Assembly: GCA_050740455.1 (NCBI GenBank)
Contig: JBOIDF010000002.1
Span: 35,642-99,641, forward strand
Reading direction: 5' to 3'
Origin: Gammaproteobacteria bacterium
GTDB taxonomy: Bacteria; Pseudomonadota; Gammaproteobacteria; JACCXJ01
Length of the DNA stretch: 64,000 nucleotides
This document shows positions 8,198-58,167 of the stretch, piece by piece. The position numbers and the translations under genes are program-made. Under the pieces are notes generated by a model. The model saw only the letters and a program-made list of their open reading frames with translations, was not told where the DNA came from and did not search any database. Position 1 is the first letter of the stretch. Each line of letters starts with the position of its first letter.

Positions 8198-8333
8198 TCA
8201 GAGCTTGTGAAAGAATCTGCTGCGCTCGGGATCTCGCGTGCCGGCGGTGCTCGGAATCCTCATGTATTTCAACATACACTCCGGTTCCTGCGCTCCGGCG
8301 GAAAGCGACCTCGCTTCGCTCGCGACGATTTTT

Positions 8334-9461
8334 TCACAACCTCTCCCGCCAAGAATCCACGTAACCGCGCCATTCGACCGCCTCCGGAAGCGCGGCCACC
8401 TCGATCGCATCGCGCGCGTCGATCATGAGCGCGACCTCGTCGGTCTCGGTGCGGCGGTGAGCTTGTCCGGCCTGGAAAGCCTTCGGGTGGGGCCCGTGGG
8501 TGATGCCGCTCGGGTGCAAGGTCAGCATGCCCGGATGGATGTTATCGCGGGAGAAAAACTGGCCCTGGTGGTAAAAGATCACCTCGTCATAATCGTCATT
8601 GTTGTGAAAGAACGGCACCCTCAACGAGCCGGGATCGCTTTCCAACGGCCGCGGGCAGAAGGTGCAGACGACGAAACGCTCGGCCAAAAACGTTGTATGT
8701 GCCGAGGGCGGTAGGTGATAGCGATGGCTCATCAAGGGCCGAATGTCACGCCAATTGATCCGCACGGGCATGAGGGTTCCGTGCCACCCCACCGCATCGA
8801 GCGGGTTGAAGGGATAGGTAAGAAGGCTCACGGATCCGCGGCGCTTCACGGCCACCCGCCATTCACGCTCCGAATGCTGGGCGCGAAAGGCCTCGTCGAT
8901 GGCGGGTGTATCGAGTACGGCCGCATCGAACACCGCATGCCGGCCGGCGATACCTTTGTCGGGGAGCCGGTAACTGGAGCCGGTCGCCTCGATCATCAAC
9001 AGCGTCGCGGGCGCCGTGGTTTCCAGGCGCCATAAGGTACCGCGAGGCAGCATGAGGTAATCTCCCTCGCGCACCGCTAGGTGGCCATAATCACAGTAAA
9101 GATCCCCGCTGCCCGCGTGTACGAACAGCAGCTCATCGCCATCGGCATTGCGCGCAAGACGGTCCATCGCCCCTTGCAAACGCCAGATCCGGAGATCCAG
9201 GAATGCGTTGGACAATAGCCGCACCGCCTCCCACGGCATCGGCGTAAACCCATCGAGTTTTGCCGTATCGAAGGCGCGTGGCCGGAGAGGGCCTTCCACC
9301 ATGGTCCAGCCGGTCGGCGGATGGCGGTGGTACATTTGCGTCGAGGGACCGTAAAAGCCTTCTTTGCCGAGCTCCCGTTCGTAGGTATCCGCGGGCAGAT
9401 CCGCGTGCGCTTGACGCGAGGACTGCCCTTCCATCTTGGGTAATGCGATCCACTGAGCCAT
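8334..9461 (-). CDS. hmgA: Homogentisate 1,2-dioxygenase
   Basis: 375 aa. Cupin-type HGD with conserved His/Glu region (HNNDDYDEVIFYHQG...HPSGITHGPHP). Confidence 0.9.
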   Translation of the reverse strand: MAQWIALPKMEGQSSRQAHADLPADTYERELGKEGFYGPSTQMYHRHPPTGWTMVEGPLRPRAFDTAKLDGFTPMPWEAVRLLSNAFLDLRIWRLQGAMDRLARNADGDELLFVHAGSGDLYCDYGHLAVREGDYLMLPRGTLWRLETTAPATLLMIEATGSSYRLPDKGIAGRHAVFDAAVLDTPAIDEAFRAQHSEREWRVAVKRRGSVSLLTYPFNPLDAVGWHGTLMPVRINWRDIRPLMSHRYHLPPSAHTTFLAERFVVCTFCPRPLESDPGSLRVPFFHNNDDYDEVIFYHQGQFFSRDNIHPGMLTLHPSGITHGPHPKAFQAGQAHRRTETDEVALMIDARDAIEVAALPEAVEWRGYVDSWRERL

Positions 9462-10742: not shown

Positions 10743-11810
10743 GTGAAAGACGTCGCTAGCTTCCGTATTCACTATACACAGTTTCTGGATCCTGCCGGCG
10801 CCCCCGCTGGATCTTTACCTGATTTCGCCCGCGAACCCGCCGTGCTCATCGATCTCTATCGCGGCATGGTGGCCGCGCGTCAGTTCGATAAAAAGGCGAT
10901 CGCGATGCAACGCACCGGGCAACTCGGCACCTATGCCTCGTGCCTAGGGCAGGAGGCGATCGGCGCAGGTGTCGGACATGCCATGCAACCCGAAGATGTG
11001 TTGTTGCCCTCCTACCGGGATCAGGCCGCGCAATTTCCGCGCGGCGTGCGCATGGCTGATATCCTGCTCTATTGGGGCGGCGATGAGCGCGGCATGGACT
11101 ATGCCCGCTGCCGGGAAGATTTTCCTATCTGCGTCCCGGTGGCGAGTCAATGCTGCCATGCGGTAGGCGTGGCCTATGCGTTCAAATATCGCGACGAGGC
11201 GCGCGCGGCCGTGTGCATCGTCGGCGACGGCGGGACCTCCAAGGGGGATTTCTACGAGGCTCTCAACGCCGCGGGGATTTGGCGCTTGCCGGTGGTGTTC
11301 GTGATCAACAATAACCAATGGGCCATCTCTGTCCCGCGCGCCGCGCAAACCGCGGCCGAGACCCTCGCGCAGAAGGCGATCGCGGGGGGGGTTGCGGGCG
11401 AGCAGGTCGATGGGAACGACGTGATCGCCGTGCGTTATGCCGTCGATCGGGCGCTGGAAAAGGCTCGCCGCGGGAACGGGCCCAGTCTCATCGAAGCGTT
11501 GAGCTATCGTATGGGCGACCATACGACCGCGGACAATGCCAGCCGCTACCGCTTGGCCGAGGAGGTCGAGCGCTACGGGCGGGCCGATCCGATCGCTCGT
11601 CTGCGCGCCTATCTCCTGCGCGCCGGCCACTGGCGGGAGGAAGACGACGCGCGGCTCGAACGGAGCGTCGCGGCCGAGGTAGAGCAAGCGGTGCGCGATT
11701 ACACCGCGATGCCTGTACCGAGCCCGGAGACCATGTTCGCGCATCTCTACGCGGCCTTGCCGCGCGCCTATCGCGTGCAGCGGGAGACGGCCGGTTGCGC
11801 CGGTAAATAG
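10743..11810 (+). CDS. Thiamine-diphosphate-dependent 2-oxoacid dehydrogenase E1 component alpha subunit
   Basis: 355 aa. TPP-binding motif (GDGGTSKGDFYEALNAAGIWRLPVVFVINNNQWAIS). GTG start with RBS GAGGAGG. Confidence 0.85.
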   Translation: MKDVASFRIHYTQFLDPAGAPAGSLPDFAREPAVLIDLYRGMVAARQFDKKAIAMQRTGQLGTYASCLGQEAIGAGVGHAMQPEDVLLPSYRDQAAQFPRGVRMADILLYWGGDERGMDYARCREDFPICVPVASQCCHAVGVAYAFKYRDEARAAVCIVGDGGTSKGDFYEALNAAGIWRLPVVFVINNNQWAISVPRAAQTAAETLAQKAIAGGVAGEQVDGNDVIAVRYAVDRALEKARRGNGPSLIEALSYRMGDHTTADNASRYRLAEEVERYGRADPIARLRAYLLRAGHWREEDDARLERSVAAEVEQAVRDYTAMPVPSPETMFAHLYAALPRAYRVQRETAGCAGK

Positions 11811-32187: not shown

Positions 32188-32949
32188 CTAGGCCCAGCCG
32201 CCCAAACCAGACGCTGCACCGGATTTAAGACATCTGCGCACCTGGCCGGTGAGCCGGCGGCTGACCGGCAAGCGCTTTTCTGTCCCGCGCAATTTAACCG
32301 CTAGGCCACCCACACCATCGCGCGCCAGGGCTTCGACTCGGGAGATCGCTACCAAAGCATTGCGGTGGATACGGAGGAACCGCTCGCCGAATTCGGCTTC
32401 CAGGGTTTTGAGCGGCTCCTCGATGACGAGCTCTCCTCCCGTCCAAACCACCGTGACGTACTTCTGATCCGCCTGGAAGTAAAGCACCTCATCCACAGGC
32501 ACAAGCCGCAGGCTGCCGCCTACCGGCGCGCTCAGATGGGTTCGAGCTCGAGTCGGAGCGCTCCGCTCCTTGAGGGTATCGAGCGCACCCCGGCTTAGTG
32601 CTTTGGCTCGCTGTAGCCCCTGTAAAAGCCGCTCCTTACGGATCGGTTTCAACAGGTAATCGACGGCGCTGGCCTCGAAAGCCTCAAGCGCGTAATCGCC
32701 AAAGGCCGTCGTAAAGACGACCGCCGGGGGATGCTCAGAGTGAGCCAGATGGTGCGCTGTCTCCAACCCGTCCATGCCAGGCATGCGGATATCGAGCAGC
32801 ACCAGTTGCGGCGCATGCGCCGCAACGGCGGTCAGGGCCTCGATCCCGTTGCCCGCTTCTCCGACGACTTCACCGATCCCAAGCTCGCGGATCAGTGCGG
32901 CGAGCCGCTCGCGCGCGAGCGGCTCATCATCTACGATGAGGATCCGCAT
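32188..32949 (-). CDS. algR: LytTR-family two-component response regulator AlgR
   Basis: REC domain (MRILIVDDEPLARERL...LLDIRMPGMDG) plus C-terminal LytTR DNA-binding domain. Adjacent to fimS and the minor-pilin operon, as in Pseudomonas. Confidence 0.8.
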   Translation of the reverse strand: MRILIVDDEPLARERLAALIRELGIGEVVGEAGNGIEALTAVAAHAPQLVLLDIRMPGMDGLETAHHLAHSEHPPAVVFTTAFGDYALEAFEASAVDYLLKPIRKERLLQGLQRAKALSRGALDTLKERSAPTRARTHLSAPVGGSLRLVPVDEVLYFQADQKYVTVVWTGGELVIEEPLKTLEAEFGERFLRIHRNALVAISRVEALARDGVGGLAVKLRGTEKRLPVSRRLTGQVRRCLKSGAASGLGGWA

Positions 32950-34006
32950 CTTCGGCGCCTTCATAAGGGAAAGATAATGTCGCCCGGTAGTGATCGCCCA
33001 AGTCCTCCACGGTCAGCCCACCCGACCCGCCGTAAAAAGCCTGCAGTCGTTGCCCCACGTTTTCCTGGGCGAAGCCATGGCTTGCGCGCGAGGATCGCCT
33101 GCCATCCGCGGGTTTCTGATTTTCGATCACGACCGTGAGCCGGTATCCTTCGCGCTGCCCCCTAATCCGTAGCACCCCACCTCGGGGCAAGGGCTCGATC
33201 CCGTGGTAGATCGCGTTCTCGATAAGCGGCTGAATCGACAACACCGGTACCAGGGCGTCCGCCGGTAACTCATCGACCTGCCAAGCGATCGCCAAGCGAT
33301 CTTGCAGGCGTAAGGCTTCTATCCGTAAATACTGCCGGCAGAGATCAAGCTCCCCACCGAGCGTGACCCGATCACGGGCCGGCAGGAGGCTCGCTCGAAA
33401 CAGATCCGCTAAGTCCTCGACAGCTTCCTCGGCCAGCTTTGGATGGCTGCGGGTCAGACTGGCGATAGTGTTCATGCAGTTGAAGAAAAAATGCGGCCGC
33501 ATGCGTGCCTGCAAGGCTTGGAGGCGGGCCTCGGACTCCGATTCGATGCGCCGTTCCCAGTGATGGTGGACATACATATAACGCAGTGCGATGGCGATCA
33601 CGATCGCCGCAATCGCCAGATTGCGCGCTAAAAATCCTCCCCTGGAAGCCGCACCGAGGGGCATCGGGTCGCTTAAATAATCCAGGGTCCACCACGCCAG
33701 CTCGCTCAATAGCCAGGTAATCGCGAGCATCGATAAATAAGCGACCATTGCCACGCTGGCCTCGCTGAAGCGGGCGTAAAACGTTCGGCTCGCGCACAGA
33801 ACCGCGGCGCAGCAAAGAGTAACCCATTGAATGAACAGCGACTTGAGGGCCAGATCGTCGAAGCTTGCGTTTACATCCGTGGCCGTCGATAGGGTCAGCA
33901 CGATGGCCAATAGCTCGGTCATCAAGACCAGCACGAACACCGGCCGGGCGGTGCAGAAGTTGGGTATGAACAGGCGATCAGTGGCGCGCGCGACAGGCAA
34001 TGTCAT
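32927..34006 (-). CDS. fimS: LytS-type sensor histidine kinase FimS/AlgZ
   Basis: About 359 aa from MTLPVARA. N-terminal multi-TM region and a His_kinase (LytS/YehU-type) H-box (RPHFFFNCMNTIASL). 3' end overlaps the algR start by about 23 bp. Confidence 0.75.
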   Translation of the reverse strand: MTLPVARATDRLFIPNFCTARPVFVLVLMTELLAIVLTLSTATDVNASFDDLALKSLFIQWVTLCCAAVLCASRTFYARFSEASVAMVAYLSMLAITWLLSELAWWTLDYLSDPMPLGAASRGGFLARNLAIAAIVIAIALRYMYVHHHWERRIESESEARLQALQARMRPHFFFNCMNTIASLTRSHPKLAEEAVEDLADLFRASLLPARDRVTLGGELDLCRQYLRIEALRLQDRLAIAWQVDELPADALVPVLSIQPLIENAIYHGIEPLPRGGVLRIRGQREGYRLTVVIENQKPADGRRSSRASHGFAQENVGQRLQAFYGGSGGLTVEDLGDHYRATLSFPYEGAEDADPHRR

Positions 34007-34178
34007 GACCCTAGCGCGCGTTTTAAGCTTCCCAAGCCGGGACCTCGCTATGGTGCTCTCTCGTGCCCAATTGTAGCGGCGGCAGGCCGAGAAGGATCGG
34101 CCCCGCTGTATCTTCATCATCGCCGGAGGTATCGGCCCTGGCATCCAGAACTCGAAGATCAGGGTTCCGCTCGGCCGA

Positions 34179-34307
34179 AGTCAATTTAGATTTCGCCCCA
34201 CGGGGTATGCAACCCCGTGGGGCGACCAAAGGGGAGAGCTGCGCCTCTCCCCTTTGGAAACCCCATCGCCAAGGTCCCCGCGGCAAGACCGCGGGGAATA
34301 GATTTTA
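34179..34307 (+). repeat. Copy 1 of a roughly 130-bp GC-rich triple-hairpin repeat element (REP/MITE-like or small RNA)
   Basis: Near-identical to 57167..57296. Contains three consecutive palindromes: CCCCACGGGGT-loop-ACCCCGTGGGG, GGGGAGAG-CTGCGC-CTCTCCCC and CCCCGCGG-CAAGA-CCGCGGGG. Lies in the fimS/fimU divergent intergenic region. Confidence 0.8.
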
Positions 34308-34430
34308 GCCGCTCGTCGGATAAATCTTCGCGTTGGTCTCCTTTCCGCTCAAGAAAGAAGCCCGCCTGAACGCTACGACGGGCCATCGAGAGCAATGCAT
34401 ATGCACAACACATCAAGCAAGAGGGAAGGC

Positions 34431-41977: not shown

Positions 41978-42130
41978 GCGAATCCGGGATCCGTTCCGCG
42001 GAGGCCGACGCGCAGGAAGCGCGGAGGCCGCCTCCCCGACAGCGGCGCCGACGCGCGGCCAGCGTAGCGAATAGGTATTTCAAAGGCCCTTTTTCCTCAG
42101 GAGCGAAGATACGACTGGACCAGTAGGCTG

Positions 42131-42394
42131 TCAAACGTGTGTATTCGGCCACAGTTTGCCGGTAACGAATAGGCGTTCATTCCGCGCGTCGTAAGCGATC
42201 CCGTTCCGGACATCGACAGGGGTTGCTCTGTCGGCTTCACTGAGCAAGCCGCGTAAATCAATCCAGCCCACGACTTGACCAGTTTGTGGTGCGATCCTGG
42301 CTATCCGATCGGTCTTCCATACGTTCGCAAACAGTTCGCCGCGGACAGTTTCGAGCTCGTTCAATCGCGTGACCGGCGTCGCGCCCTCGCGCAC
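42131..42394 (-). pseudogene. C-terminal fragment of a glutaminyl-peptide cyclotransferase (third, diverged copy)
   Basis: 87 aa, about 85% identical to the C-termini of the full genes at 43439..44143 and 44659..45492. No N-terminal portion. Confidence 0.6.
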
Positions 42395-42483
42395 CGTTAG
42401 GCGGTCGGCTTCGGCATAGGGGTTACAAAATCCGCTTCCAAAGTTATACTTTGGTGTAATTTAACGAATCGCGAGGTCTCATC

Positions 42484-42741
42484 ATGCCAATTGCAACCCT
42501 TCGCAGTGTAGGCGGTTCGGTTGTCATGGCCATCCCCAAGCGCATATTGGATTTGGTGCATTTGCAATCCGGTTCGCAAGTGAATATTGATGTCCAGGAC
42601 GGAAAACTGGTGGTTGAGCCGAAGAAAAAACCACGCTATACCCTCGCCGAACTGATGGCGCAGTGCGACCTGTCGCAACCTATGAGCACAGAAGAAAGAG
42701 AATGGCTTGACACACCCGATGTCGGCGCAGAGGTACCCTGA
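42484..42741 (+). CDS. MazE/PemI/ChpS-family antitoxin (SpoVT/AbrB fold)
   Basis: 85 aa. RSVGGSVVMAIPKRILDLVHLQSGSQVNIDV...YTLAELMAQCD closely parallels ChpS/PemI. Overlaps the toxin gene start. Confidence 0.75.
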   Translation: MPIATLRSVGGSVVMAIPKRILDLVHLQSGSQVNIDVQDGKLVVEPKKKPRYTLAELMAQCDLSQPMSTEEREWLDTPDVGAEVP

Positions 42742-43079
42742 TGCGCATACCCGGCTGGGGCGAGATTTGGCACGTTAATCTGAACCCAGTCGCGGGCAAG
42801 GAACAACAAGGCTTGAGGCCGGTTCTGGTGGTGTCCGACAAAGAATTTAACCGGTCCGGACTGGTACTTGTTTGTCCGGTCACACAGGGCGGCAATCAGG
42901 CGCGGTTTTCCGGGTTCGCCGTGTCATTGATGAACACAGGCACGGAAACGCAAGGGGTTGTGATGTGCAATCAACCGAGGACTATCGACTATGCTGCACG
43001 CGCGGCAAGGTTCATAGAGGACGCGCCGGATTACGTGATCGATGATGTCTTGGCCCGGCTGCAAACCCTTCTGGAGTAA
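42741..43079 (+). CDS. MazF/PemK/ChpB-family endoribonuclease toxin
   Basis: 112 aa. GEIWHVNLNPVAGKEQQGLRPVLVVS...LVCPVTQGGNQARFSGFAVSL matches PemK/ChpB. Local GC is clearly lower than the surroundings. Confidence 0.8.
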   Translation: MRIPGWGEIWHVNLNPVAGKEQQGLRPVLVVSDKEFNRSGLVLVCPVTQGGNQARFSGFAVSLMNTGTETQGVVMCNQPRTIDYAARAARFIEDAPDYVIDDVLARLQTLLE

Positions 43080-43094
43080 CCGAGTTCTACAGAG

Positions 43095-43301
43095 GTGGTC
43101 ATCGATGACAAAACAATCCAGTCCGCAGTGGCCCGGCTGGTGTCTGCCGCAACGTCCCCCAGCCAGGTGATCCTGTTCGGCTTTTACGCACTAGGCACGG
43201 CCGATGAGGGCTCAGATCTCGATCTGCTAGTCATCGAGCGGGAAATACCCAACAAGGCTGATGAATACACAGCTCCGCGCCGGAGAAAAGACGGCCGGTG
43301 A
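43095..43301 (+). pseudogene. Truncated minimal nucleotidyltransferase (Pol-beta superfamily, MNT-like)
   Basis: 68 aa with ILFGFYALGTADEGSDLDLLVI (GS-x-D-x-D). Ends at a duplication junction, so it is about two-thirds of a normal MNT. Confidence 0.5.
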
Positions 43302-43306
43302 ACTAG
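43280..43306. repeat. Direct repeat junction CCGGAGAAAAGACGGCCGGTGAACTAG (copy 1; copy 2 at 44636..44662)
   Basis: Identical 27-mer, extended to about 35 bp with one mismatch, immediately 3' of each full glutaminyl-cyclase copy. It marks a tandem-duplication boundary. Confidence 0.8.
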
Positions 43307-43438
43307 GGAGGCTCTGAATAAGTTCCTAATTTTCCAAGCGCGTCATTCCCGCGAAAGCAGGTATCCAGGATTTACGCCGGTTTCCTGGATGCCCGCTTCC
43401 GCGGGCATGACGAAAGAGGGTCTTATTTCAGAGTTTCC
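43307..43438. repeat. MITE-like insertion with terminal inverted repeats and a central 30-bp imperfect palindrome
   Basis: Present only in copy A, between the junction repeat and the QC stop. TIRs GGCTCTGAATAAG ... CTTATTTCAGAG. Core palindrome CGTCATTCCCGCGAAAGCAGGTATCCAGGA-N12-TCCTGGATGCCCGCTTCCGCGGGCATGACG. Confidence 0.6.
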
Positions 43439-44143
43439 CTACCGCCGGGGGACAAGCTTGATCTCGAAAAGCTTCGGCCATAGTTTGCCGGTAACGAACA
43501 GGCGGTCATTGCGCGCGTCGTAAGCGATCCCGTTCAGGACATCGATGCCCGTTGCTCTGCCGGCCTCACTGAGCAACCCGCGCAAATCAATCCAGCCCGT
43601 GACTTGACCCGTTTGTAGCGAGATCCTGGCTATCCGATCGGTCTTCCAGACATTGGCATACAGTTCGCCGCGGACAGTTTCGAGCTCGTTCAATCGAGTG
43701 ACCGGCGTCGCGCCCTCGCGCACCGTCAGGCGGCCTGTCTCACGAAACGTAGTTGCATCGAGGAACCGCAGCGTTGCCGTGCCGTCGCTCATGATGAGCC
43801 GCTTACCATCGTGGGTGATCCCCCAACCTTGGCCGGAATAATTGAACATCCGCTTGACTTGAAAATTCATCCGCTCGTATATGAACCCGAGCTTCGAGGT
43901 CCAGGTCAACTGCACGAGATCGGGGCCCCAGCTTGTCAGCCCCTCTCCGAAGTGCTCACGGGATCGTGCGGTCTGCCGTAGCACCCTGCCCGTTTCTAAT
44001 TCGACTTTCCGGAGCGTCGAACGGCCGTTCACCCCCGTGCTTTCGTAGAGGAATCCGTCAACGTAGGTCAAGCCCTGCGTAAAGGCATTGCGATCGTGAG
44101 GATAGACCCACACGACCTCGGGTGTACGGGTTGCCGCTCTCAT
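43439..44143 (-). CDS. Glutaminyl-peptide cyclotransferase (glutamine cyclotransferase), N-terminally truncated copy A
   Basis: 234 aa, over 95% identical to copy B across the beta-propeller body. Lacks the signal peptide, and homology breaks exactly at CACGACCTCG. Possibly a pseudogene. Confidence 0.65.
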   Translation of the reverse strand: MRAATRTPEVVWVYPHDRNAFTQGLTYVDGFLYESTGVNGRSTLRKVELETGRVLRQTARSREHFGEGLTSWGPDLVQLTWTSKLGFIYERMNFQVKRMFNYSGQGWGITHDGKRLIMSDGTATLRFLDATTFRETGRLTVREGATPVTRLNELETVRGELYANVWKTDRIARISLQTGQVTGWIDLRGLLSEAGRATGIDVLNGIAYDARNDRLFVTGKLWPKLFEIKLVPRR

Positions 44144-44317
44144 CGAGTTGGGCGTCGTTGAAGAGGGGGCTGAGCTTGACTGTCATGGGAAGATCCTATT
44201 TTGGGCCAGGCGGCGCCTGGCGTATAATCATGGGAGCCTGGAATTTCCCAGGCGGGGCGAGTACCCGAGCGCCATCGAAGATGGCCGGACCCGGAGGTCG
44301 AAAGTCAAGAAGGAACG

Positions 44318-44551
44318 ATGGCCACGATGATCAATGAGCTCTACGATGCGCTCCGCAAGGCAGGCGTTGATGAAGATATCGCACGCAAGGCCGCGCAAGC
44401 TGTGCTGGGAGCCGAGGAAAAAGATCAGCTCGTCACCAAGGATTATTTACGCGCCGAGATGGAAGCGCTCAAGTCAGATCTAATCAAATGGAACGTCGGG
44501 GCGATGGCCGTCCTTACCGCCGTCTTCGGCGCGCTGGTGAAGCTGCTATGA
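44318..44551 (+). CDS. DUF1640-family small coiled-coil protein with C-terminal TM helix
   Basis: 77 aa. TKDYLRAEMEALKSDLIKWNVGAMAVLTAVFGALVKLL matches the DUF1640 C-terminal pattern. Lies between the two QC copies. Confidence 0.5.
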   Translation: MATMINELYDALRKAGVDEDIARKAAQAVLGAEEKDQLVTKDYLRAEMEALKSDLIKWNVGAMAVLTAVFGALVKLL

Positions 44552-44635
44552 CTGCGGATCAGCCGAGTCGAAATGCGGCTAGGCGCCATCGAGGCGCATT
44601 TTGAGCAGCGTTGAGTCGCGCTTGGCCGCTCCGCC

Positions 44636-44662
44636 CCGGAGAAAAGACGGCCGGTGAACTAG
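44636..44662. repeat. Direct repeat junction, copy 2
   Basis: See 43280..43306. Confidence 0.8.
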
Positions 44663-45492
44663 TGCCGGAGGACAAGCTTGATTTCGAAAAGCTTCGGCCA
44701 CAGTTTGCCGGTAACGAACAGGCGGTCATTGCGCGCGTCGTAAGCGATCCCGTTCAGGACATCGATGCCCGTTGCTCTGCCGGCATCACTGAGCAACCCG
44801 CGCAAATCAATCCAGCCCGTGACTTGACCCGTTTGTAGCGAGATCCTGGCTATCCGATCGGTCTTCCAGACATTGGCATACAGTTCGCCGCGGACAGTTT
44901 CGAGCTCGTTCAATCGAGTGACCGGCGTCGCGCCCTCGCGCACCGTCAGGCGGCCTGTCTCACGAAACGTAGTTGCATCGAGGAACCGCAGCGTTGCCGT
45001 GCCGTCGCTCATGATGATCCGCTTACCATCGTGGGTGATCCCCCAACCTTCGCCGGAATAATTGAAGGTCCGCTTGACTTGAAAATTCATCCGCTCGTAT
45101 ATGAACCCGAGCTTCGAGGTCCAGGTCAACTGCACGAGATCGGGGCCCCAGCTTGTCAGCCCCTCTCCGAAGTGCTCACGGGACAGTGCGGTCTGCCGTA
45201 GCACCCTGCCCGTTTCTAATTCGACTTTCCGGAGCGTCGAACGGCCGTTCACCCCCGTGCTTTCGTAGAGGAAACCGTCAACGTAGGTCAAGCCCTGCGT
45301 AAAGGCATTGCGATCGTGAGGATAGACGCGCACGACCTCGTACCCATGCGTGGGCGCGCGCTGGTTCACAAAGCCCCGCTCTAACGAGGAAGATGTAGTT
45401 ACGATGAGCGGAAAACCTAGCGCTAGCACCGCAAGAGCGATCACATGATTTCGAGAGCCCAAGACGTTACGGCTGGAATGCGTTTCATTCAT
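44659..45492 (-). CDS. Glutaminyl-peptide cyclotransferase, full-length secreted copy B
   Basis: 277 aa with a signal peptide/TM (VIALAVLALGFPLIV). Plant/bacterial-type QC beta-propeller family. Confidence 0.75.
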   Translation of the reverse strand: MNETHSSRNVLGSRNHVIALAVLALGFPLIVTTSSSLERGFVNQRAPTHGYEVVRVYPHDRNAFTQGLTYVDGFLYESTGVNGRSTLRKVELETGRVLRQTALSREHFGEGLTSWGPDLVQLTWTSKLGFIYERMNFQVKRTFNYSGEGWGITHDGKRIIMSDGTATLRFLDATTFRETGRLTVREGATPVTRLNELETVRGELYANVWKTDRIARISLQTGQVTGWIDLRGLLSDAGRATGIDVLNGIAYDARNDRLFVTGKLWPKLFEIKLVLRH

Positions 45493-49370: not shown

Positions 49371-49685
49371 TCATTCGTGAGCAGGCATCCCCAAGTATTG
49401 GTCTTTCAACTTGACATAATGGGCAGCGGAATCCGATAGGTATCTCTGCTCGACCTCCGTTAGCGGGCGTGACTTGCGCGCGGGGCTCCCGATCCATAGA
49501 TGCCCTCCTTGAAGCACTTTGCCACTCGGCACCAAACTCCCCGCCCCCAGGATTAACCCTGCTTCCAAGACGGCGCCATCCATGACCGTCGCCGACATGC
49601 CGATGAGGCAATAGTCCTCGATTCGGCAGCCGTGGATCACGGCGCGATGGCCGACGGTGACCTCCCCGCGCTCGCAACGGTTTTT
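49371..49685 (-). pseudogene. Gamma-carbonic-anhydrase/hexapeptide-repeat family, C-terminal half only
   Basis: EGEVTVGHRAVIHGCRIEDYCLIGMSATVMDGAVLEAGLILGAGSLVP...YVKLKDQYL aligns to the C-terminal half of YrdA/PaaY-like proteins. An in-frame stop lies at 49686-49688 and no N-terminal half was found in any frame. Confidence 0.5.
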
Positions 49686-49905
49686 TCACAAACTCTCAGT
49701 CCACGGGCGCATCGAATTCGTTGACCGGAGCCGCGACGGCGGCTCTAAAGAACTTCCTGGATTTACACGATATATCGCCAACACCTTTTCGAACGAGCTG
49801 TGTTCTAAACCCAGGGGTATGTCGCAATTCCAGGACCGTGGATAGGGCGCCGCTGGGCCGCTTTACACCCAGCTTGCCCGTAACTCATCGCAGACAGTTG
49901 AGACT

Positions 49906-53027: not shown

Positions 53028-53063
53028 TTATTTATCACCGACGCGCCGGGCGCATCTCGACGC

Positions 53064-55781: not shown

Positions 55782-55929
55782 CAATCACGGCGAACGGTTC
55801 GTGGTCTCCCCCGGTCACGAAGAGCAAGGGATCTTCCTTCGCTCGCTGACGATTTCTTCACAAACTCTGAGGCCGGGATCCCGGCCTATCGATCGTAGTT
55901 GTCCCTTCGACACCGCGGCCAAGTCGCCC

Positions 55930-56911: not shown

Positions 56912-57118
56912 ATGAGCATTCGTGACTGGTTCGGACGGTTCTCCCGATCAAGGGGCTTACGTATTTTCAATTATGCCTGGGTCATCATCACGCTGATTAT
57001 CTTCGGGTTGATACTGTACGGCCCACCGAGGCCGGATGCCCGAAACGCCGCATCCAAGAACACGCCAGTCGCGAGTGAACCGCTCTCGACGGAATCCGCC
57101 GGCGCAGGGACAAAATGA
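56912..57118 (+). CDS. Hypothetical small membrane protein
   Basis: 68-aa ORF with one predicted TM helix (YAWVIITLIIFGLILY), preceded by an AT-rich putative promoter. No homology recognised. Confidence 0.25.
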   Translation: MSIRDWFGRFSRSRGLRIFNYAWVIITLIIFGLILYGPPRPDARNAASKNTPVASEPLSTESAGAGTK

Positions 57119-57166: not shown

Positions 57167-57296
57167 AGTCAATTTAGATTTCGCCACCACGGGGTTGCAA
57201 CCCCGTGGGGCGACCAATAGGGGAGAGCTGCGCCTCTCCCCTTTGGAAACCCCATCGCTAAGGTCCCCGCGGCAAGACCGCGGGGAATAGATTTAA
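57167..57296 (+). repeat. Copy 2 of the roughly 130-bp triple-hairpin repeat element
   Basis: Matches 34179..34307 with a few substitutions that preserve the hairpins. Lies between convergent genes. Confidence 0.8.
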
Positions 57297-57297
57297 A

Positions 57298-58167
57298 TCA
57301 GGGAATGTCGGCTTTCGTATACAGCTTTGGATGGAAACGGCTAAATAGCCCCCTGCGTTGCACCCGTCCGTAGTACATCCTTAGCCGCGTAGGAACCAGA
57401 TTCATAAACTGCCGCCCGAGCCTTTTCAGGTAGGCCTCGGCGGGGCTGGCGTCGTGTTTCCAAAGCGTCACGTAGTCGCTTTGATAGACGCCTGTCGCGA
57501 AGATCTCCGCCCCCCAAAGCTTCTTGGCGATCACGGCAAGATAAGTCGGCCGGGAGTTGGTAAGCTCGACCCGGCGCTTGACGCGATCGGGGTCCGCGAC
57601 CTCAAACCAAGGCGCTCCCGCCCGGTCCTCGAAGACGAACATCTTAATGACGGCAAATCCGTTTGCTTGCGTGAAGATCCGATAGAAAAGCTCGGGGCTG
57701 AACTGATAGAAACCATGCCCCAGAAAATTGTTACCCGGAACGACCCCGATAAAATGCCCGCCCGGCTCAACCATCTGCATACAGCTTTTGATCGCGACAG
57801 GAAAATTAAACACGTGTTCCAGGGACCCGCTGTCGATTACCACGGAAAATTGGTTTTTGTATGACTCATCGATCGGCGCGTTTAAATCGACGATGTCCGT
57901 CGCGTGTTCGTAATCGGAGGCATCAAGAGAGCGGATGCGCTCCGCGCCTAAGAGATGGAAAAGCGGTTCCGCAAAACCCTGATTTCGGAGAAAACAATCG
58001 TTTACGGCGGCCACCGTGACTGGATAATCGAACTGCCCCAAAAGCTTATGCAACTCGCGCGAGCTCAAATGGAGTGTTTGCCGCCCGACCATGGCCGTCT
58101 CTCGGTACGAAACGCCCAGTCCGCGCGCGTACAGGAGCAAGCGCGTCGCGTGTATATCCAAACCCAT
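57298..58167 (-). CDS. Hypothetical protein with a degenerate methyltransferase-like motif
   Basis: 289 aa. FSVVIDSGSLEHVFNFPVAIKSCMQMVEPGGHFIGVVP resembles Methyltransf_11 motifs II/III, but the glycine-rich motif I is absent. Confidence 0.35.
   Translation of the reverse strand: MGLDIHATRLLLYARGLGVSYRETAMVGRQTLHLSSRELHKLLGQFDYPVTVAAVNDCFLRNQGFAEPLFHLLGAERIRSLDASDYEHATDIVDLNAPIDESYKNQFSVVIDSGSLEHVFNFPVAIKSCMQMVEPGGHFIGVVPGNNFLGHGFYQFSPELFYRIFTQANGFAVIKMFVFEDRAGAPWFEVADPDRVKRRVELTNSRPTYLAVIAKKLWGAEIFATGVYQSDYVTLWKHDASPAEAYLKRLGRQFMNLVPTRLRMYYGRVQRRGLFSRFHPKLYTKADIP

Follow-up and report, generated by a model that had tools for sequence, protein, structure and literature searches.

A dispersed triple-hairpin repeat family in uncultured genomes of upland soil cluster gamma, probably mobile now or in the past

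A GC-rich element with three adjacent hairpins is present twice in a 64,000-nucleotide stretch of DNA (the window) from Gammaproteobacteria bacterium (GenBank assembly GCA_050740455.1, contig JBOIDF010000002.1, positions 35,642 to 99,641 of the forward strand). The first copy (copy A) lies upstream of a fimU-like pilin gene, and the second (copy B) lies next to the stop codon of another gene. The question raised by this locus is what such an element is. The initial annotation proposed a genome-wide family of repetitive extragenic palindromes (REPs) or miniature inverted-repeat transposable elements (MITEs), a family of small RNAs, or bidirectional terminators, and considered a role in pilus regulation plausible. 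The analyses presented here indicate that the element very probably belongs to an interspersed repeat family maintained at the DNA level. This family is previously undescribed; the kind itself is ordinary, resembling the REPs, the bacterial interspersed mosaic elements (BIMEs) and the Rhizobium-specific intergenic mosaic elements (RIMEs).

The element is about 127-128 bases long, and is arranged as a 5' tail, hairpin 1 (H1), hairpin 2 (H2), a linker, hairpin 3 (H3), and a 3' tail (Table 1). An nhmmer search of the 64-kb window identified copies A and B only. Both are in the same orientation, and share 96.9% identity over 129 columns by BLAST, with 3 single-base gaps and one C/T substitution in the linker; about 95% identity had been estimated before. 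The three adjacent palindromes were correctly recognized as hairpins, and their stems are longer than the 11, 8, and 8 bp originally given. The initial annotation also described substitutions in H1 that preserve pairing between the two copies. These are in fact single-base indels: an additional A is bulged out of the stem in copy B, and the loop of this copy is one base shorter. The bulged A is the family consensus, and no compensatory change was found between copies A and B. The open reading frames (ORFs) overlapping the copies lack the signature of the real genes in the window (GC content at third codon positions above that at second positions, GC3>GC2), in agreement with the earlier view that the copies are non-coding.

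The predicted folds are very stable. For copy A, the RNA folding energy was -79.9 kcal/mol, compared with -47.0 +/- 3.4 for 200 dinucleotide shuffles (z = -9.7). The z-score was -7.1 for copy B, and -6.8 and -6.1 for the reverse strands; 0 shuffles were as stable. DNA folding gave the three hairpins again on both strands (z = -10.3, -9.4, and -7.2). The diverged subfamilies described below also have the identical three-hairpin arrangement in DNA folding.

The 5'-tail 18-mer GTCAATTTAGATTTCGCC was scanned against one genome per species, and at least 50 loci were found, about 40 of which extend into full or partial element copies. These copies come from at least seven species-representative metagenome-assembled genomes (MAGs), including Chromatiales bacterium USCg_Taylor, Lehman Caves 20pBin3, Frasassi PCtopBin12, SD8020, SD8032, SC-S bin 27, and MFD06229, and the family is also present in the window genome. 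The other matches (Clostridia, Saprospiraceae, Planctomycetales, and others) have the 18-mer alone. The profile search by nhmmer added copies without the exact word within the same 8-kb loci, which suggests a density of roughly one copy per 30-40 kb. Copies at unrelated sites within a genome have a mean identity of 93% (79-98%), and orthologous copies in different species are 94.5-97% identical (alignment A3). Six insertion sites are common to two to four species. The elements at these sites are 91-99% identical in 200-nt windows, compared with 86-99% for the alignable, mostly coding flanks. Decayed forms are also present: H2 is lost in locus L037, H3 is truncated in L008 and L036, and a single hybrid hairpin is left in L029 and L050. 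The proposal of a genome-wide, REP- or MITE-like family is thus borne out in its general form.

No match to the element was found by blastn in plasmids, 5,426 E. coli genomes, or GenBank phages. A full-text literature search with the core sequence strings gave unrelated primer matches only. The cave MAGs were assigned to the GTDB genus USCg-Taylor (wb1-P19; USC-gamma, for upland soil cluster gamma), and the paper describing them is silent on repeats. The window is 100% identical to a contig of GCA_975305705.1, the window genome, and a second assembly made independently from these reads breaks off within copy B. Four further copies are cut by contig ends.

Two further loci should be mentioned. 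A copy cut by the contig end adjoins a small ORF similar to HNH endonucleases (71-476) in L032 (1-476), and this ORF is missing from the syntenic part of the window. Contig L030 carries a near-perfect copy of subfamily 1 (1381-1508). The bin of this contig is Pyrinomonadaceae (Acidobacteriota), probably through mis-binning of USC-gamma DNA and not through cross-phylum spread.

A wider superfamily was identified using the core 18-mer CTCCCCTTTGGAAACCCC, which covers the 3' arm of H2 plus the linker. The metagenome scan found at least 120 loci, 105 of which hold 124 recognizable copies, up to 3 per 1-2 kb. These copies form several subfamilies with a shared layout and differing sequences. The H1 stems are CGAACACGGGG/CCCCGTGTTCG, CGACCACGGGG/CCCCGTGGTCG, GGGCGGGG/CCCCGCCC, and TGCGCACGGGG/CCCCGTGCGCA; the H3 stems are CCCGCCTC/GAGGCGGG, CCCGCGGC/GCCGCGGG, and CCCGTAGC/GCTACGGG. 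The 3' tails also vary by subfamily. H2 is the nearly invariant core of the whole superfamily, and the GGAAACCCCAT linker is almost invariant as well. As for the hosts, sister subfamilies are present in other uncultured bacteria; a Uup protein next to subfamily-2 copies is closest to Gammaproteobacteria MAGs, and a UbiD protein at another locus is closest to Chloroflexi MAGs.

Covariation was counted in 87 distinct full-length copies. The structure was specified by hand, as RNAalifold did not recover H2 from the MAFFT alignment and, owing to the bulged A of subfamily 1, placed the outer H1 helix out of register. The covariance model (CM) alignment A4 was contaminated by antisense matches to the palindromes, and was left out of the counts. 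In total, 91.4% of the cells are paired, and double changes occur at 15 of the 31 pairs (139 cells); 0 of 500 shuffles equalled this. In the slid-partner controls, pairing falls to 39-64%. The covarying positions are the outer pairs of H1, whose inner CGGGG/CCCCG is conserved, and the apical pairs of H3; H2 and AAACCCCAT hardly vary. Structural constraint, as proposed by the initial annotation from the two window copies, is therefore seen among the diverged subfamilies and not between copies A and B. The conservation of H2 and AAACCCCAT is partly due to ascertainment, as the metagenome search word sits there. Nevertheless, the 18/18 match is kept in subfamilies whose other stems have turned over, which indicates that the H2 core changes more slowly than the other stems.

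Several further features of the superfamily were observed. H1 is followed by ACCA in all subfamilies (e.g., L132, 1958-2092; window, 34193-34229), and subfamily 2 has a 7-nt loop, TTTGAAT. Resemblance to a tRNA acceptor/T-arm minihelix was considered a coincidence, as the conserved C is missing from the loop and H2 takes up the CCA in its own pairing. Co-varying direct-repeat tails in all subfamilies were also considered and dropped, since such tails are clear in subfamily 1 only (TAGATTT). In three metagenome contigs (L061, 1-1057; L056, 3352-4170; L052, 9434-13086), copies are 0.4-1.8 kb apart in a single orientation, among ordinary genes such as those for CheY-like regulators, and sucA, gltA, and mdh; in L056, two copies follow each other head-to-tail at a distance of 5 nt. 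An identical 58-nt segment of H2 plus linker is found at both ends (14-71 and 11517-11574) of the 11.6-kb low-GC contig L168, which is probably a circular molecule assembled with overlapping ends. An H2-like hairpin bearing the core 18-mer (CACAAAGGGGCGG-loop-CCTCCCCTTTGGAAACCCC), with CCCCCTTGAAAC before it, is also found in phage-like contigs (L177-L193 from IMG/VR; L054, L064, L083, L099, L122, L130, L147, and L149); some contigs carry it twice, and its locus is conserved. Kinship and a chance match of the 18-mer are both possible for these phage hairpins.

Whether the structure is maintained in DNA or in RNA was addressed from gene context and pairing. Genes were called by a simple GC3-based method, which reproduces the genes of the window, and all but 2 of 50 matches are outside the called genes. 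Where a gene was called on either side of a copy (28 copies), the flanking genes are co-directional and antisense to the element in 9, co-directional and sense in 7, divergent in 6, and convergent in 6; no orientation bias was found. An RNA read from one strand is expected to tolerate G:U pairs, but not A:C pairs. In the stems, G:U mismatches were counted in 35 cells, and A:C mismatches in 59 cells. No Rfam 15 family matched anywhere in the window at the gathering score; the best sub-threshold hit to the element at E<=10 was LAGLIDADG-2 (24.7 bits, cut-off 94.9). A promoter scan found no sigma-70-like site at copy A or copy B. Taken together, the lack of orientation bias, the A:C mismatches not below G:U, and the lack of an Rfam family and a promoter site speak for maintenance of the palindromes at the level of DNA, or to the same degree on both strands.

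Some other kinds of structured element were considered. Several copies lie 13-25 nt from a start codon, and an outward -35 sequence (TTGACT) at the 5' end could make a hybrid promoter, for which the scan was negative. The integron attC sites have core sites (RYYYAAC...GTTRRRY), form one long imperfect hairpin, and occur in cassette arrays beside intI. The ends of the element are unpaired and its copies are dispersed among housekeeping genes, so it was not classified as attC. The template/variable pair of diversity-generating retroelements and the retrons were ruled out by architecture and dispersed distribution.

Table 1. Positions of the two copies, their parts, and neighbouring features in the window
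Feature	Position	Strand	Remarks
Copy A	34179-34307	+	subfamily 1; nhmmer 144.7 bits, CM 132.7 bits
Copy A, 5' tail AGTCAATTTAGATT	34179-34192	+	RTCAA start kept across subfamilies
Copy A, H1	34193-34225	+	14-bp stem, 5-nt loop ATGCA
Copy A, H2	34226-34257	+	13-bp stem CCAAAGGGGAGAG / CTCTCCCCTTTGG, 6-nt loop CTGCGC
Copy A, unpaired linker AAACCCCATCGCCAAGG	34258-34274	+	conserved part is AAACCCCAT
Copy A, H3	34275-34297	+	9-bp stem, 5-nt loop CAAGA
Copy A, 3' tail ATAGATTTTA	34298-34307	+	TAGATTT repeats the 5'-tail motif
Copy B	57167-57296	+	subfamily 1
Copy B, hairpins	H1 57181-57213; H2 57214-57246; H3 57264-57286	+	H1 with bulged A
Empty site, 36-nt intergenic spacer	53028-53063		diverged copy there in L032 (6635-6748, opposite orientation)
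His_kinase gene, LytTR-type	32927-34144	-	adjoins gene for a Response_reg+LytTR regulator
68-aa ORF	56912-57118	+	between pentapeptide-repeat gene and copy B; one predicted membrane helix

Presence and absence of the element at the same site was seen in four comparisons. The window from 43.4 to 54.3 kb is syntenic with the Lehman Caves contig L032 (92-96% identity), and this region contains a site that is empty in the window and filled in L032 (Table 1). In the second comparison, a copy lies downstream of gloA in L017; L173, L174 (the window genome), and L175 instead read ...TCGGA directly followed by ATAATTATCGCC... The third pair is L151 (filled) and L158 (empty), and the fourth sets a partial copy in L031 against L016. 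Each empty site is a short AT-rich word close to the end of a gene. No target duplication was visible in the four comparisons or in 14 flank pairs of subfamily 1, in genomes that differ by 5-10% around the junctions. There are no terminal inverted repeats: the 5' end AGTCAATTTAGATTT does not match the reverse complement of the 3' end TAAAATCTATTCC, and the tails share TAGATTT solely as a direct repeat. CAA is in every case preceded by A(A/G)T, and AAT forms the end of most subfamilies; these bases may belong to the element. At the sites compared, the element has moved or been lost, and it is probably mobile, or was so formerly.

How it might have moved is suggested by its geometry. A 12-15-nt tail precedes the first hairpin and a 10-14-nt tail follows the last, which would fit hairpin-recognizing transposition of a single strand. 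The element may spread, or may have spread, as a non-autonomous unit that is recognized through its hairpins. The single-stranded DNA would be handled by a Y1 (HUH-type) transposase supplied in trans, as in the systems of REPs and paired REPs forming hairpins (REPINs) with their REP-associated tyrosine transposases (RAYTs), and in the hairpin-ended derivatives of IS200/IS605. The protein would read the invariant H2 and linker, and H1 and H3 would co-evolve by subfamily. Inverted termini and target duplications are not expected from such a mechanism. Transcribed hairpins may incidentally block or stabilize RNA. This Y1/HUH mechanism is put forward tentatively, and the chances are somewhat against it.

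A candidate enzyme was searched for by a motif scan and tblastn over all of the fetched loci. One gene of the PF01797 family (Y1_Tnp, RAYT-like) was found, in L017 (829-1521), and its orthologues are present in three further genomes: L173, L174 (797-1531; GCA_975305705.1, the window genome), and L175. The gene is single, and the gene order Y1_Tnp-gloA-mlaFED is kept in all four genomes. More than 7,900 homologues were found at E<1e-20, and the best 120 of these are 72-94% identical. Since it has many highly conserved homologues, the gene seems to behave like a domesticated, vertically inherited gene. In L017, one copy of the element lies 505 nt downstream of Y1_Tnp, beyond gloA.

Several points weigh against a mobile element that is moved by such an enzyme. 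The filled/empty comparisons number four only, all between diverged genomes, and therefore leave room for short target duplications or a fixed target word. The paralogues are about 7% diverged and the orthologues persist across species, so the family may be old and now immobile, with the absences due to deletion. The middle of the element is the most conserved part and not its ends, though the search word in the middle inflates this conservation; transposons that are recognized by their ends usually show the reverse. No copy is present within 6 kb of Y1_Tnp in L173, L174, or L175, and the flanks of Y1_Tnp in the sampled loci have neither palindromes nor abundant words. No transposase with ends matching the element was found, and no full-length autonomous parent with the same ends was present in 1.3 Mb of fetched loci. 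As Y1_Tnp is not flanked by the element, it is a candidate enzyme only, and a REPIN-RAYT relationship is not supported. With these points considered, the evidence still moderately favours a dispersed, non-autonomous palindromic mosaic repeat of the REP/BIME/RIME type, which a Y1 (HUH) transposase might move in single-stranded form.

Comparison with known systems showed likeness and difference in each case. The REP/REPIN-RAYT systems of Pseudomonas and Enterobacteria are likewise built of GC-rich palindromes outside genes, with copy numbers from tens to hundreds (PMC3116915, PMC5581495). Inverted termini and target duplication are absent, and neither was seen for the element in the junctions and flanks compared; in both cases the sequence is lineage-specific with a conserved hairpin shape, copies persist for long at orthologous sites, and a single-copy, syntenic, vertically inherited Y1 (PF01797) gene is present in the same genomes. 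The RAYT genes are likewise single-copy and syntenic; REPINs almost always flank them (PMC5581495), whereas the element does not flank the Y1 gene. It also consists of three different hairpins in about 127 bp, instead of one palindrome of 20-40 nt or an inverted doublet. H3 is not H1 in inverted form, the whole element is not one long hairpin, there is no GTAG-type 5' tetranucleotide, and the conserved part is the middle hairpin and not the whole unit.

The element also shares features with the palindrome-associated transposable elements, which are hairpin-ended derivatives of IS200/IS605: it has a subterminal hairpin at either end, short tails, no inverted termini, no duplication at the sites compared, and insertion beside short AT-rich words. 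Such derivatives insert 3' of a fixed 4-5-nt word, for which the A(A/G)T before CAA may be mistaken if it is part of the element. However, the fetched loci contained no cognate tnpA/tnpB element with such ends, and the central, most conserved third hairpin has no counterpart in these derivatives.

The BIMEs of E. coli and the RIMEs of rhizobia are intergenic units of about 100-150 bp, in which several distinct palindromes are combined with conserved short motifs that stay unpaired. Some variants are without one or two of the modules, and the units are often directly after stop codons; IHF or gyrase binding is a further mark of such units. The element resembles them in its several palindromes and conserved linker, its modular variants, and its proximity to stop codons. 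It differs from both in host and in its clear presence/absence polymorphism between close relatives, and from the BIMEs in having no sequence similarity in the 5,426 E. coli genomes.

The likeness to BIMEs also leads to the strongest of the alternative explanations, in which the copies are structural sites selected by the host, as has been proposed for the E. coli BIMEs, and any mobility is secondary. The sites might be platforms for a nucleoid or topology protein, or hairpin blocks at transcript ends, which insulate genes and protect the 3' ends of mRNAs. The near invariance of the H2 core and linker across subfamilies is consistent with this, though it is partly an artefact of the search word, and so is the persistence of orthologous copies, which are as conserved as their coding flanks. 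About half of the copies that adjoin a gene 3' end are within 10 nt of the stop codon, overlap it, or supply it, as a TAG in the 5' tail or a TAA across the 3' end. However, 6 of the 28 copies are between divergent starts, where there is no transcript end to protect. H3 of copy A passed a lax test for a hairpin plus T-run, which would suit such a role; copy B failed, and there is no U-tract after H1 or H2. For these reasons an intrinsic terminator was rejected, and bidirectional termination, as initially suggested, is not supported as the reason for the element. Moreover, close relatives lack the element at the same positions, and many copies are truncated. Host-selected sites are therefore considered unlikely.

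A classical MITE is slightly less likely still. It would be a deletion derivative of a DDE-type insertion sequence that entered TA- or AT-rich targets by a cut-and-paste or a copy-paste route. The element is small, non-coding, and multi-copy, with presence/absence polymorphism at the AT-rich words GGAATAATTATCG, GATAAATAA, and GGGTAACTACGG, and its ends (RTCAA... and ...AAT) recur across subfamilies. The ERIC and Correia/NEMIS-type MITEs, at about 105-155 bp, are close to it in size; they too are intergenic and multi-copy, and they can influence the transcripts next to them. However, their terminal inverted repeats fold the unit into one long hairpin, and the Correia elements duplicate TA. The element has neither mutually inverted ends nor any duplication at the junctions and flanks compared above, and a full-length parent was not seen in the fetched loci.

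The idea of a family of structured small RNAs, or of cis-regulatory RNA modules transcribed from one strand, is less probable again. It draws on the very stable folds, the covariation in H1 and H3, and a weak, sub-threshold likeness of the minus strand to multi-hairpin Rfam motifs. Covariation is likewise expected of palindromic DNA repeats, and the insertion polymorphism and decay products speak against RNA genes. The orientation, mismatch, Rfam, and promoter results given above also disagree with this suggestion of the initial annotation. Finally, a chance or local duplication, as the two copies within the window might imply, is ruled out, since at least eight genomes hold dozens of copies whose flanks are unrelated, and metagenomes hold more than 120 others.

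With the dispersed repeat as the preferred explanation, the position of copy A can be reconsidered. Copy A lies between the start of a fimS-like kinase gene (34144, minus strand) and the start of a fimU-like gene (34395), and the domain matches agree with the divergent promoter region that was initially annotated. The kinase/regulator pair is divergent from an operon of GspH/N_methyl minor-pilin genes starting at 34395, in which pilV- and pilW-like genes follow. The proposed regulatory role was based on this position. As the element is a polymorphic multi-copy repeat that is present in all kinds of intergenic context, its position here appears incidental, and copy A is best read as a passenger in the promoter region and not as a dedicated pilus regulator. 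One base past copy A, and some 80 nt upstream from the start of the fimU-like gene, lies the sequence CCGCTCGTC (34309-34317). Its likeness to the Pseudomonas AlgR binding box, CCGTTCGTC, makes it a candidate site for a pilus regulator, and judged from sequence a more plausible one than the repeat. A search for regulator sites upstream of fimU should leave the element out of account.

The 3' end of copy B is 1-2 nt from the stop codon of a minus-strand gene (57298-58167). The other neighbour is the 68-aa ORF (Table 1), which was accepted by gene callers and has no family match. The neighbours are convergent, as initially annotated, only if this ORF is real; otherwise they are co-directional.

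Two other repeats are present in the window. Three direct repeats of about 300 nt (81-98% identical, 42110-44958) are the 3' parts of tandem paralogous minus-strand genes. L032 aligns one segment to both downstream repeats, which suggests that their copy number differs between close relatives. A second intergenic repeat, ACGrTTTyTTCACAAmCTCT, is found at 8290-8350, 49642-49702, and 55849-55874, with a 56-nt version at two of the sites, and is unrelated to the triple hairpin.

In summary, the family adds an unusual layout to the bacterial interspersed palindromes: the central hairpin is conserved and the outer two covary, the ends are not inverted, and no duplication was seen at the sites compared. 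This contrast between the middle and the outer hairpins is one unusual point, and the other is a mobilizing enzyme that was not found. As a speculative possibility of low probability, the middle module (CCAAAGGGGAG-loop-CTCCCCTTTGG, followed by AAACCCCAT) might be the recognition site of a putative protein partner. This would be a new, long-lived partnership between a repeat and a domesticated enzyme, analogous to REPIN-RAYT and differently built, in many uncultured Gammaproteobacteria, and possibly in other phyla and phages. The atmospheric-methane oxidizers of USC-gamma / wb1-P19 have, to our knowledge, never been cultured. The repeat breaks short-read assemblies of their genomes, and can cause spurious small ORFs and altered stop codons in annotation; the CM or the 18-mers can flag such places. 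The copies can also serve as strain-level markers, as their presence or absence differs between close relatives. The single syntenic Y1 transposase gene in this group makes the question of what moves the repeat a testable one.

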